A stretch of 64,000 bases of DNA from NCBI GenBank assembly GCA_951406725.2, contig OX597827.1, positions 65,844,001 through 65,908,000 on the forward strand. Direction: 5' to 3'. The position numbers were made by a program, and so were the translations under genes. Of the stretch, positions 1 to 59,829 are shown piece by piece. The notes below the pieces were generated by a model that ran no database searches, had not been told where the DNA came from, and saw only the letters and a program-made list of their open reading frames with translations. The DNA is from Octopus vulgaris (Eukaryota). Every line of letters starts with the position of its first letter. Position 1 is the first letter of the stretch.

Positions 1-2187
1 GTCTTCTCACGCTGAAATTTTATGCTTATCTAAGTGGCGATATAGTTTCCTCATGTATTTGAATAATATTATACATTTACTCATGTATCTTTGTATATTT
101 GTATATATATATATATATATATATATATATATATATATATACATGTATGTGTGTGTGTGTGTGTGTGTGTGTAGGCGTAATATATATGTATGCGTTAGTG
201 CATGTGGTTGTGATGGTGTTTTGAAGCAGTACATAATGAAAGATGAAAGCCTCTTTCAATACGACGTACACTGTTATGTCTCAGAGTAAAATGTAGTTTA
301 CAATATAACCTAGATTATAAGATTTACGTGCGTAGAAATGCACATATATATATATATATATATATATATATATATATATATATATATATATATATGAACG
401 TGTGTGAGCGTGTGAATGGTTGTGTGTTTGTGTGTATGTATTAGTGTGTAAATATGTATACACACATATATGTGTAATTACATATTTATATATATATTTA
501 GTTATATATATAAATGTATATATATATGTATGTATGCATATATGTATATATATATATTTGATATATATTTATATATATATATTTAATGTATATTCATATA
601 TGTATATATATATATATATATATATATATATATATATATATGGATAGATATACATATAAAACAGAGAGAGACAGAGGCAGAGAGAAACAGTTTCTACGAT
701 CACTACAGATATTGTATAAATATGAGTGTGAGTGTTTGTGTGAGTGTGTGCGCGCGCCTGTGTATGTAATTTTTGTGAACATTCTATAAACCAAGCTGTG
801 GGATCTTAAATAACGGGTTTCATACCTAGGGAGATATATAGTTAAATACAATGTTTGTTAATAACTAACTGCACGCTATATAGTACATTTCTGTTTCGAC
901 AGTTATGCTCCTTTCAATACAACTTCTATTTCAACCATCTAAAGGTCGAAATCTAACAAGAGCGCTGTGTATTATGTTATAAAGAAGCACAAAATGATAC
1001 CGATTCCATCTGTAGCACCTTTTATATAGTGACACATTGCATTAGCACTTTATATCTTTATATATTTGCAATTTAGTTTCTCCGGGCTGATATAATAGGT
1101 ATTCTTTAATCATGTTCAGTCTGTGAATCCCAACGATATATTTCGAGCATGGTGTCCTAAACATTTCTTTAATTGAAGGAAATTGACTTTAATTATTTAG
1201 TGGGGACAGTTCTGATATTTTTATACTGATGAATTTTTTCCAGTAAATCTAAGGTTCAATCTTCTCACAGATCGTGTGATATTCTGGCCAAATAAATATT
1301 ATACAATGAGTATACATGAACATGAAAATGTTAGATATTTGTTTTTATGCTGTTGCTTATCAAGAAGGGAGTTCATCTAAAACAGAATGACAAACGTTTT
1401 TATTCTTATACATTCAGTCACATTACTCATACAATGATATGATTATTGTTATCGAATAATTTCTTCATATAAAAAATATGCTTCACAACTCTAGCATGTT
1501 TTACGACTTCCTTGTAGGCAACTGATCTATGTATTTCTTTAATGTGTTAATAAAAGAAGGTACTTCTCGTGCAAGGAGCAGTCAAGAGATCTATAAATAC
1601 GGCGTCACGAGTGTCACCAGCAATTTTTTATGCACATCAGTAGTGTACAGAGAACGTGTTTGCATTTTTTATATGATTCACAATGAAAGTGTATATAATA
1701 GCAATTCATTGCAAATGTTGTTTCTGATTATCTGATATGCGATATGTTGTGAATACACATTCAGAAAACACACATACAGACACACAAACACACACAGACA
1801 CACACACACACACATATATATATATATAAAGAGAGAGAGAATATATAATGAGTTTCCGGCAACTGACGTAAAGAAATGTGTTTATAGTACGAGTGTTCGG
1901 TTTAGCTTGCCACTAAAACTCCAGTTCCACCAGCAACAGACTTGGTGTTGAGACCGCCTATCAGAAGAGGCTACATATAATATATATATATATATATATA
2001 TATATATATAGATAAGAAAGTTTGTTTGGTAAAGCACGTGGGTGAATATATAAGAAAATAGTAAAGTGTGAAAAAACGACAGAAGGCTTAAATGTTAAAA
2101 GATATATATATTTGTGTCAAAATGTCTGGAGAATATTGGAAAAATTTTTTTTCCTTTCCTTAAAATGACATAATTTTTAAATTTTTA

Positions 2188-2227
2188 AAGAAATTACCGG
2201 TTTCGCGTGTAGCTTTTCAAATTTCTT
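2188..2227 (-). ncRNA. Minimal type-I hammerhead ribozyme, U3-A8 core variant (PLE 3' repeat)
   Basis: Minus strand: aagaaat-TTGAAAA-gc tacac gc-GAAA-ccgg-TA-atttctt, giving a 7-bp stem I, 2-bp stem II and palindromic stem III ACCGGT. Confidence 0.72.
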
Positions 2228-2362
2228 GTGACGTTATGTTTATATTGCATGGATTTATCGTTGTTTTTATTTCCAGGAGATTTCTAAATAAGGGGAGGTA
2301 GTGAGTGATTTTTCCGGTGTAGGGGAGATAATCGCTTAAAAAATTTTTTTCCCATTTCCTTA

Positions 2363-2738
2363 TTAATTTCTCTGTGTCAGTATGTTCGGATGGTTGAGTC
2401 TGGGTTTGTACTTTTCAATGAAGAATGTTTCCTTGTTCAGTCTCATTTGTGTTGATGATCCGAAAGCACATTGGTAAAATGGGAAGATTAAAAATTGTGG
2501 CAGTAGTTGCTTTGCGCATTTCTCAATGTGCTCACTAAAAGGTATCATTCTATATTCTGGGAATGCAATCTGTTGTCGATGCAGTGTGCATCTGCGCCTG
2601 AGTGATAGTCCCGTGGAACCCACGTAGTCTTGGTGGCAGCCCGAGCATTTAATAACATAAATTATGTTTTCAGAGGCACAAGTAAAGTTAGATTTGATCT
2701 TAAATTTCTGTCCTTCTTTAAAGAAGAATTCTGATCCT
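2363..2738 (-). pseudogene. PLE GIY-YIG endonuclease fragment (left arm)
   Basis: Translation FTCASENIIYVIKCSGCHQDYVGST..LRRRCTLH..RLNKETFFI..PRLN matches the GIY-YIG motif order (IY-YVG, R, H, E, N). The N-terminus of the listed ORF 2363..2830 is antisense read-through across the palindrome centre. Confidence 0.88.
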
Positions 2739-2739
2739 G

Positions 2740-3131
2740 GTCCTAACCTATTGGAAGGATCAGAATTCTTCTTTAAAGAAGGACAGAAATTTAAGATCAA
2801 ATCTAACTTTACTTGTGCCTCTGAAAACATAATTTATGTTATTAAATGCTCGGGCTGCCACCAAGACTACGTGGGTTCCACGGGACTATCACTCAGGCGC
2901 AGATGCACACTGCATCGACAACAGATTGCATTCCCAGAATATAGAATGATACCTTTTAGTGAGCACATTGAGAAATGCGCAAAGCAACTACTGCCACAAT
3001 TTTTAATCTTCCCATTTTACCAATGTGCTTTCGGATCATCAACACAAATGAGACTGAACAAGGAAACATTCTTCATTGAAAAGTACAAACCCAGACTCAA
3101 CCATCCGAACATACTGACACAGAGAAATTAA
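2740..3131 (+). pseudogene. PLE GIY-YIG endonuclease fragment (right arm)
   Basis: Same peptide as the left arm and as 22922..23374, 5'-truncated at PNLLEGSEF. Confidence 0.88.
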
Positions 3132-3264
3132 CAAGGAAATGGGAAAAAATTTTTTAAGCGATTATCTCCCTACACCGGAAAAATCACTCACTACCTCCCC
3201 TTATTTAGAAATCTCCTGGAAATAAAAACAACGATAAATCCATGCAATATAAACATAACGTCAC

Positions 3265-3304
3265 AAGAAATTTGAAAAGCTACACGCGAAACCGGTAATT
3301 TCTT
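3265..3304 (+). ncRNA. Minimal type-I hammerhead ribozyme, U3-A8 core variant (PLE 3' repeat)
   Basis: aagaaat-TTGAAAA-gc tacac gc-GAAA-ccgg-TA-atttctt; identical to the other three copies. Confidence 0.72.
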
Positions 3305-57381: not shown

Positions 57382-57757
57382 TACAGGGTAAATGTTTTTT
57401 AATTTTCTCCTGTTTACGGAATTGATCTTTATTTGCGGTAGAAGCTTTGGCTGTTATTTCTAGTGGGTGAATGGCCTATTATGGCCGTTCCTTAATTGTT
57501 AATGTTGAACTTAAAAATGGTCTATGACTATTTAATTTTTTCCCACTGGGCCGCTGGTGGCAAAAAAATTCTACAAAATTTTCCTGCCACCCTATATTGA
57601 TTAATTATGAATTTTTTGGTTAATTCCGTAATGGAATCGACGATTTATTTGCTGCCGATAAATTTGGCGCGAGTGCGACGATTTGAAAATTTTAGGTCAG
57701 ATATTGCCTTGGCAGGATTGGGTATGCCTCGTGTAAATATCTGTTCCGACTTGAGCT

Positions 57758-57864
57758 ATTTCTTGCTGAAGAATCTGAGGGCTTATGGAAGATTGGCTTG
57801 ATTTAATTTAATCAGGTTAGTTTACCAGTAAACAGCAGATGAAACGGTATACCGTACAAGAAAT
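57758..57864 (+). ncRNA. Type-I hammerhead ribozyme, array right arm copy 4
   Basis: Same motif with one substitution in the stem II extension; predicted cleavage after 57856. Confidence 0.93.
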
Positions 57865-58242
57865 TACAGGGTAAATGTTTTTTTAATTTTCTCCTGTTTA
57901 CGGAATTGATCTTTATTTGCGGTAGAAGCTTTGGCTGTTATTTCTAGTGGGTGAATGGCCTATTATGGCCGTTCCTTAATTGTTAATGTTGAACTTAAAA
58001 ATGGTCTATGACTATTTAATTTTTTCCCACTGGGCCGCTGGTGGCAAAAAAATTCTACAAAATTTTCCTTGCCACCCTATATTGATTAATTATGAATTTT
58101 TTGGTTAATTCCGTAATGGAATCGACGATTTATTTGCTGCCGATAAATTTGGCGCGAGTGCGACGATTTGAAAATTTTAGGTCAGATATTGCCTTGGCAG
58201 GATTGGGTATGCCTCGTGTAAATATCTGTTCCGACTTGAGCT

Positions 58243-58349
58243 ATTTCTTGCTGAAGAATCTGAGGGCTTATGGAAGATTGGCTTGATTTAATTTAATCAG
58301 GTTAGTTTACCATTAAACAGCAGATGAAACGGTATACCGTACAAGAAAT
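58243..58349 (+). ncRNA. Type-I hammerhead ribozyme, array right arm copy 5
   Basis: Same motif; predicted cleavage after 58341. Confidence 0.93.
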
Positions 58350-58727
58350 TACAGGGTAAATGTTTTTTTAATTTTCTCCTGTTTACGGAATTGATCTTTA
58401 TTTGCGGTAGAAGCTTTGGCTGTTATTTCTAGTGGGTGAATGGCCTATTATGGCCGTTCCTTAATTGTTAATGTTGAACTTAAAAATGGTCTATGACTAT
58501 TTAATTTTTTCCCACTGGGCCGCTGGTGGCAAAAAAATTCTACAAAATTTTCCTTGCCACCCTATATTGATTAATTATGAATTTTTTGGTTAATTCCGTA
58601 ATGGAATCGACGATTTATTTGCTGCCGATAAATTTGGCGCGAGTGCGACGATTTGAAAATTTTAGGTCAGATATTGCCTTGGCAGGATTGGGTATGCCTC
58701 GTGTAAATATCTGTTCCGACTTGAGCT

Positions 58728-58834
58728 ATTTCTTGCTGAAGAATCTGAGGGCTTATGGAAGATTGGCTTGATTTAATTTAATCAGGTTAGTTTACCATTA
58801 AACAGCAGATGAAACGGTATACCGTACAAGAAAT
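58728..58834 (+). ncRNA. Type-I hammerhead ribozyme, array right arm copy 6
   Basis: Same motif; predicted cleavage after 58826. Confidence 0.93.
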
Positions 58835-59829
58835 TACAGGGTAAATGTTTTTTTAATTTTCTCCTGTTTACGGAATTGATCTTTATTTGCGGTAGAAGCT
58901 TTGGCTGTTATTTCTAGTGGGTGAATGGCCTATTATGGCCGTTCCTTAATTGTTAATGTTGAACTTAAAAATGGTCTATGACTATTTAATTTTTTCCCAC
59001 TGGGCCGCTGGTGGCAAAAAAATTCTACAAAATTTTCCTTGCCACCCTATATTGATATATATATATATATATATATATATATATATATACTTACATATGC
59101 GTGCGAGCATTCGTGTGCATACGTGCGTGCAAGTGTGTATCGGTCTCTCTTTCTATCCTTCTCTCTCTCTCTCTCTATATATATATATATACATACATAC
59201 ATACATACATACATATATATGTGTATACGCATTATTATATGTATGCATGTATGTATGTTGTATGCAATGCAAGTACGTATTCATTTGTTAAATAAGTAAT
59301 ATGTTCATATCTCACCCACTATCAAAACGCCTTAGAATCATTTTGATTTATTAATCAGAAAAGTATATTTAGTTGTGTTACATTAGATTGAAATACATTA
59401 AAACAAGTCAGTGTCGACAAGGCGTCCATGTGGAAAAACATTTTCAATTTCAAAATGAATATCGAAATAAGGCTACATGTAAAATGTTTTACAATGTCAT
59501 GGTATATACTAAAGTAGTTCATAATTTCTCCAGGTAAACCCAGTTGTTGCAAAATATCATGTAAGGATTCGTTGAAAATATAAACAGGTTTTTGATTTCT
59601 TATAATGAAATGATACCTTGACATAATCTAAATATAGTATTATGAAGGAATTTATTTGGGAAACATAAATATGCTTATTAAATGCATCTATTAAATATTT
59701 CGGAATTTTTGACACGATCATACTCTCTTTGGTATTAAGAAATACATACATACATATACATACATGCATACATACATATATATATATATATATACATATA
59801 TATATATAAACTCTTTTCTCCCTCTCACT

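Follow-up and report, generated by a model that had tools for sequence, protein, structure and literature searches.

The window analysed in this study is the whole stretch of 64,000 nucleotides (nt) at C14:65844001-65908000 of the 2.8-Gb Octopus vulgaris genome (contig OX597827.1), and the genome-wide searches cover that genome. The window is rich in (TA)n, with 127 tracts of 10 nt or longer, and contains five insertions built on one plan: each is an inverted pair of arms joined at their 5' sides, and the two 3' ends stop at unequal points of the element and enter (TA)n. Self-comparison and reading sorted the five structures into three families, namely Penelope-like element (PLE) family A (2011-3445 and 22606-25260), PLE family C (42873-43213), and a hammerhead ribozyme repeat, termed a retrozyme, with the subfamilies R1 (54628-59056) and R2 (25281-25810). 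R1/R2 represents a new family of retrozymes that clearly bears the scar of PLE integration and lies beside ordinary PLE copies. The original prediction had claimed the common geometry and a sense-strand hammerhead for all five insertions, and both claims held, the family A motif being weak and recognised by eye. It had also spoken of several non-coding elements and a range of parasitic RNAs, which was too broad: only two of the stretches are non-coding, and these belong to the single family R1/R2.

Retrozyme and PLE families of the window

The R1 unit measures 485 nt and the R2 unit 470 nt, and the two are 73% alike. Judged by this similarity (z 27), they are two subfamilies of one hammerhead retrozyme family. 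The longest open reading frame (ORF) beginning with methionine has 64 aa in R1 and 18 aa in R2, and the family, the only non-coding one among the five insertions, is without long terminal repeat (LTR) structure. Tandem R1 arms reach 9.9 units (L048), and 15 successive matches were found in one arm on C1. Arrays of 7–10 units that match the window unit without a difference occur on different chromosomes, so that these arrays are young yet long. In array L048 all 13 units, in both arms, share two private alleles, which is consistent with one template; private alleles are also common to the units within an arm in L046 and L049. The head-to-tail 485-nt joint was present in four of four public runs (one from a second organism label), which are contigs only, with a guessed RNA label, and in which tandem DNA would give the same joint.

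Both R1 and R2 show the canonical core of a predicted type I hammerhead, in which stem III is palindromic and stem II is lengthened to ~65 nt. The R1 hammerhead folds as a three-way junction (z -5.5 against shuffles), and 7 of 30 pairs changed on both sides across nine R1/R2 copies, with variant L175 supplying one independent change in stem II. Strict hammerheads were absent from the shuffled window (0 in five one-strand shuffles). Rfam gave no match for one R1 unit (58230-58480), and for the whole window the 150 matches listed out of 288, dominated by microsatellite miRNA-like matches, included no hammerhead. The predicted hammerhead of family C has a core with G3 and C8 swapped (fold z -2.8), and this swap is kept across family C copies; in the ribozyme of another PLE, cleavage is partly restored by a G3-C8 double change, according to the part of PMC11167929 consulted. 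The minimal U3-A8 motif of family A was identified by eye only, was missed by the scripted scan, and folds no better than shuffles (z +0.7); a U3-A8 hammerhead variant is described in the part of PMC4209133 consulted. A divergent GIY-YIG element (L215:1611-1710) carries, ~1.1 kb past its ORF, a canonical hammerhead whose loop II is long, in an R1-like architecture without sequence similarity to R1.

The two family A insertions, which are 99% alike, code for the last part of a reverse transcriptase (RT), together with a Cys linker and a GIY-YIG domain. A frame of 811 aa in this family (L056) contains an RT as well as a GIY-YIG at the C terminus, of which RVT_1 scored above the cut-off and GIY-YIG below it (E 0.067; E 0.0094 for the piece in the window). 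A CX2-5CxxC-type linker was seen, which makes family A a candidate for the Neptune clade. Several copies have an upstream frame (L061:4665-6149, L051) of 495 codons from stop to stop, which lies in another phase, overlaps the RT frame and has no Pfam match; it is perhaps an ORF1 joined by frameshift.

A 24-nt marker directly upstream of the family C sequence at 42873-43213 occurs 473 times in the genome, and in longer copies it is preceded by ~1 kb of low-complexity untranslated region (UTR) and a GIY-YIG ORF. In L191 a frame of 1025 aa, with GIY-YIG above the cut-off, ends ~1 kb upstream of the terminal repeat, and L192, L197, L198 and L199 agree. Pfam found no RT in this frame, and we take the RT to be marked by a YVDD motif. 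Sequence comparison thus identifies 42873-43213 as the 5'-truncated 3' end of an autonomous PLE, moved in cis. The idea that it is a short circular unit or a SINE-like element (short interspersed element) was refuted by the longer copies, which reach the PLE ORF.

About ten GIY-YIG PLE families were sampled in the genome, with 40 of 1422 and 40 of 2285 candidates scored. Families A, C and D (the last with 1312 aa, L193) are young and have long open frames, and many frames of 781 aa occur in a further family. L211 was set aside as a GIY-YIG exon which we take to resemble the cellular SLX1 and not a PLE, and the 3.4-kb repeat at L121 was rejected as an element and regarded as a segmental repeat.

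Ends, arms and junctions

The R1/R2 tally comprises 62 classified events, made up of the 22 best R1 matches, the 15 best R2 matches and 25 pattern matches taken in order of position. The first two subsets are selected by best hit and are biased to long copies; the position-ordered subset was not chosen by length. Overlapping search loci of one array were removed, and two events at C1:195.86 Mb (L152/L169/L200) were excluded. An event was counted as two-armed when the 5' ends of opposite arms lay no more than 45 nt apart.

Two-armed inversions were found in 42 of the 62 events (13, 10 and 19 in the three subsets), including 19 of the 25 in the position-ordered subset, and two further events have a tiny inverted tail arm. 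The 3' ends lie at two places in the unit, a short site (S) at position ~130 and a tail site (T) at ~230-241 in R1 and 223-230 in R2, so that T is ~100 nt beyond S. Both sites occupy homologous places in R1 and R2 despite the 73% identity. Among the two-armed events, 36 of 42 pair one S end with one T end, none pairs S with S or T with T, and six have one end off site. Inversions with both ends on site are therefore S+T in 36 of 36 cases (p 1.5e-11). No bias in arm length was found within these pairs (S longer in 20, T longer in 16 by hand count; p 0.62).

The 3' ends enter (TA)4 in 99 of 104 cases, compared with 7% of window positions; no poly-A was seen at R1/R2 ends. A genome-wide survey of junctions had been set beforehand as the check on the original prediction, and copies elsewhere show the inversions and TA flanks that it had led us to expect. 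The 5' ends, by contrast with the fixed 3' ends, are scattered. By hand count of the 42 junctions, 26 overlap by 1–14 nt, four are flush and 12 carry inserts, the overlap count being inflated by BLAST end extension. In most single-armed copies a TA-like sequence also adjoins the 5' end, consistent with a TA tract that was present beforehand.

Some hairpin junctions are near-perfect, with both arms stopping at the same template position and often with a short palindrome (L135, L139, L144, L170, L174 and L176 in the retrozyme, L059 in family A). It was also found that one TA tract can hold different insertions, namely A with R2 (25261-25280), A with C, and R1 with an older R1 (L068; L137; L169/L200), suggesting that tracts left at insertion ends are targeted again.

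The same pairing was observed in the PLEs. In family A, 22 loci were chosen for carrying a tail: 18 of them are paired with an inverted arm that in every case ends at S, two are single and two are clipped by the fetched span. In family C, 19 S+T pairs were counted by hand, S+S and T+T were absent, and four more events have an off-site end. The tails measure ~42 nt in family A, ~60 nt in family C and ~100 nt in R1/R2. In three control repeats without hammerheads, adjacent copies on opposite strands occurred in 1 of 80, 0 of 61 and 0 of 80 cases (1/221 in total), and 38 of the 80 copies of an ordinary SINE-like control are flanked by TA on one side. Because this control also adjoins TA and the controls are almost never inverted, the diagnostic feature is the pair of S and T ends and not TA alone. 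The original prediction had called the window direct evidence; what was obtained is a genomic signature.

Table 1. Features of the window, the five inverted insertions first.
Feature	Position	Strand	Details
PLE family A arm, 5'-truncated, tail end	2011..2738	-	GIY-YIG end, 3' UTR, minimal hammerhead 2190-2225
PLE family A arm, 5'-truncated, short-site end	2740..3445	+	minimal hammerhead 3267-3302
PLE family A long arm, short-site end	22606..24526	-	broken RT, Cys linker, GIY-YIG, 3' UTR, hammerhead 22749-22784
PLE family A inverted arm, ~42-nt tail	24527..25260	+	hammerhead 25047-25082
(TA)10 tract common to family A tail end and R2 short end	25261..25280	.	
Retrozyme R2, about one 470-nt unit (arm ~485 nt), short-site end	25281..25755	-	predicted type I hammerhead, extended stem II, 25407-25505
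Retrozyme R2 inverted arm, 54 nt, tail-site end	25757..25810	+	
PLE family C 3' terminus, 203 nt, tail end	42873..43075	-	predicted G3-C8 hammerhead variant 43015-43062
PLE family C 3' terminus, ~143 nt, short end	43071..43213	+	predicted hammerhead variant 43083-43130
Retrozyme R1, 3.45 tandem 485-nt units, short-site end (unit position 131)	54628..56301	-	predicted hammerheads 54752-54856, 55235-55339, 55719-55823
Retrozyme R1, 5.68 tandem units, tail-site end (unit position 230)	56300..59056	+	six predicted hammerheads, 56309-56413 to 58729-58833
Single-armed, older (88%) copy of the family C 3' terminus, its tail end entering (TA)n	13971..14172	-	
Single-armed PLE family D 3' end, tail-site end in (TA)n	20387..20653	+	89% to L193; hammerhead-like motif 20444-20496
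Degenerate hammerhead-like motif	43471..43515	+	downstream of (AAT)n tract
Decayed PLE fragment	62336..62698	+	33% to family A protein
Dispersed ~184-nt repeat, short tandem runs	26434..27191 and 28530..28971		no hammerhead, no inversions found
Presumed Mariner-like transposase fragment	20802..21242	-	from translation
Presumed LINE-like RT fragment (long interspersed element)	41134..41721	+	from translation

Proposed mobilization and its alternatives

A non-coding hammerhead repeat that carries the PLE integration signature genome-wide is best read as mobilised by a PLE in trans. We consider it likely that R1/R2 is a non-LTR retrozyme that enters new sites by means of the RT/GIY-YIG protein from a PLE targeting (TA)n, through the same two-ended reaction that the PLE applies to its own RNA. 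The original prediction had extended mobilisation in trans to all the hammerhead insertions. That part stands for R1/R2 and falls for the copies of A and C, which are coding PLEs.

In the proposed mechanism, tandem R1/R2 copies would be transcribed, and their hammerheads would release unit-length RNA that is probably circularised. The PLE protein, probably as a dimer, would nick both strands of a (TA)n tract, as suggested by the flanks and by in vitro work on another PLE. One DNA end would prime at the internal site S and the other at T, ~100 nt downstream on the RNA; priming is deduced from ends that are fixed and paired one of each. Both cDNAs would extend upstream across the ribozyme cut site, often over several units, and stop at scattered points, as the structure of the copies displays. 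The two cDNAs would then be joined through a short overlap or an insert, both of which occur at the junctions, and would template each other by a presumed repair route, giving the inverted pair. In the part of PMC11167929 consulted, a PLE of Anolis cuts and extends AT-rich DNA on both strands in vitro and has two internal RNA start sites whose spacing equals the genomic tail. S and T would fit these two start sites by analogy.

A more far-reaching reading was also considered, to which we give somewhat less than even weight. R1/R2 would be a viroid-like circular RNA without PLE kinship that has gained two structural start sites for the PLE dimer, so that one complex primes once per site and copies round the circle. 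Animal hammerhead satellite arrays would accordingly be born multimeric and inverted in one integration, and PLE integration in general would follow the obligate S+T pairing, which could then serve to recognise any RNA mobilised by a PLE.

Several observations weigh against insertion by a PLE in trans, or against the circular template. Twenty of the 62 events are single-armed, and the R1/R2 tail of ~100 nt exceeds those of families A and C as well as the 30-40 nt given for PLEs in the part of PMC8557442 consulted. No significant similarity was found between R1/R2 and the post-ribozyme regions of families A, B and C (z no higher than 1.1), and the best nhmmer match to 26 PLE stretches of the ~ten families, a partial sampling in which some UTRs may be cut, had an E of 0.2. 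Near the short site R1 and family C seemed to share a motif, but the match did not reach significance (z 0.8; R2 z -0.5) and was rejected. Among 61 loci, none was a mixed insertion that combined a PLE arm with a retrozyme arm. Six of the seven covarying hammerhead pairs mostly mirror the single split between R1 and R2; cleavage, circular RNA and expression are presumed, the public runs being contigs with a guessed RNA label. The array at C1:195.86 Mb is a mosaic of unit variants, unlike one monomeric circle copied round and round, which leaves room for a multimeric transcript or later exchange.

The original prediction had gone on to a single Penelope machine. This claim was not sustained, because R1/R2 is without significant similarity to the sampled PLEs, no mixed insertion was found and several PLE families are young; nothing ties R1/R2 to family A of the window in particular, in a genome with ~ten GIY-YIG PLE families.

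R1/R2 could instead be the pseudo-LTR (pLTR) of an autonomous PLE that is unsampled or was recently lost, amplified as tandem terminal repeats. It would then be a cis-derived passenger of the same enzyme class, as proposed for Xenopus retrozymes. This is a serious alternative, though we judge it unlikely. It is favoured by the precedent of the 42873 element, which seemed non-coding and turned out to be a PLE 3' end, by the similarly long loop II of the hammerhead in the PLE at L215, and by the limited PLE sampling described above; furthermore, 24 of 57 Xenopus retrozyme families matched transposable elements, nearly all PLEs, in the part of the preprint 10.64898/2026.07.22.740005 consulted. 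However, each sufficiently long R1/R2 arm continues as another tandem unit (up to the 9.9 units of L048 and the 15 matches on C1), no ORF, of a PLE or otherwise, is joined to the 5' end of an arm in the 61 loci, and homology to the 26 PLE stretches was not found.

A second alternative concerns the origin of the arrays only and is compatible with mobilisation by a PLE. Insertions that were short at first may have grown through slippage or unequal crossing-over, or the template may have been a long transcript reading through a source array, in place of a circle. The mosaic units on C1 and the many insertions of less than one unit point this way, and local amplification and unequal crossover are discussed in the consulted text of the preprint just cited. 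Against it stand the arrays of 7-10 units on different chromosomes that are identical to the window unit, and the fact that both arms are often multimeric, so that we regard it, too, as improbable without being remote.

Insertion by a LINE-type enzyme or by DNA repair, with inversion through twin priming and TA flanks supplied by a TA-rich genome, is strongly disfavoured. LINEs have been named as candidate mobilisers of retrozymes (PMC7229834, in the part consulted), and SINE-like repeats also adjoin TA on one side. Yet the two retrozyme arms contain the same 3' region, and each stops at its own one of two fixed sites, exactly like the arms of PLE families A and C; adjacent inverted copies were found only once in 221 SINE-like controls, and R1/R2 ends had no visible poly-A. 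That the palindromes are fold-back or assembly artefacts is hardly credible, for although no strand-change joint was listed in the public runs (one unit, contigs only, where locus-specific joints are unlikely to rank), the flanks outside the two arms differ, the unequal ends are family-specific, the arms have diverged in older copies (96% identity at 42873) and inserts are present at 12 of 42 junctions.

Comparison with known systems

How animal hammerhead repeats reach new loci has been an open question ever since their discovery as satellites. PLEs are regarded as strong candidate mobilisers of animal non-LTR retrozymes by Cervera and de la Pena (2020, PMC7229834, here as in the following comparisons in the part consulted). 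Like the retrozymes of that study, R1/R2 consists of non-coding tandem repeats with one predicted type I hammerhead per unit. Unlike them (150-450 bp), it has a unit of 470-485 nt, a stem II of ~65 nt and two-armed (TA)n inversions whose two ends are fixed. Neither 'inverted' nor 'target site' is found in the main text of that paper.

In the preprint of Li, Clavereau and Pollet (2026, 10.64898/2026.07.22.740005), animal retrozymes are described as non-autonomous PLE derivatives that use PLE enzymes. That conclusion rests on co-occurrence and on homology of pLTRs, chiefly among vertebrates, whereas the evidence for R1/R2 is integration geometry, pLTR homology not having been found among the ~ten families sampled; the text consulted makes no mention of 'tail', 'junction' or 'target site'. 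The link between PLEs and retrozymes is thus already published, and the junction-level form of the evidence appears to be new. No report of a junction signature for an animal retrozyme was found in the literature searched, which did not extend to supplements, to the majority of subscription papers or to Repbase, a possible home of non-autonomous PLE entries, and PMC6765202 had nothing further on junctions in its consulted part. To the published support from co-occurrence and terminal-repeat homology, a young family that is identical across chromosomes adds an integration scar.

The work of Craig et al. (2021, PMC8557442) already covers copies in inverted orientation, tails, the targeting of TA and the non-autonomous elements of Chlamys. 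The nearest autonomous type for the PLEs of the window is probably the C-terminal GIY-YIG PLE of the Neptune/Nematis type treated there. Like Chlamys MRC1, R1/R2 is a non-coding candidate passenger of a PLE, and the Chlamys elements also have pLTRs and multicopy head-to-tail insertions. These are green algal elements, their 3' end is generally similar to that of the autonomous partner, and most are without a canonical hammerhead. In contrast, R1/R2 has a predicted canonical hammerhead, and 3' similarity to an autonomous PLE was not found among the ~ten families sampled.

With two named start sites, one target and intact candidate enzymes in the same genome, the relation between PLE and retrozyme is open to direct assay, and the rule of one S and one T limits how a PLE dimer can engage its RNA. 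The closest biochemical system is the Poseidon element PAc of Anolis (Frangieh et al. 2024, PMC11167929), whose start sites have no target homology and no strand preference. Unlike PAc, family A has TATATA after both sites, the R1 sites are AT-rich, and the two sites are obligately paired in the genome. As in the PAc study, the tail of tandem family A copies runs on into the first ORF of the next unit.

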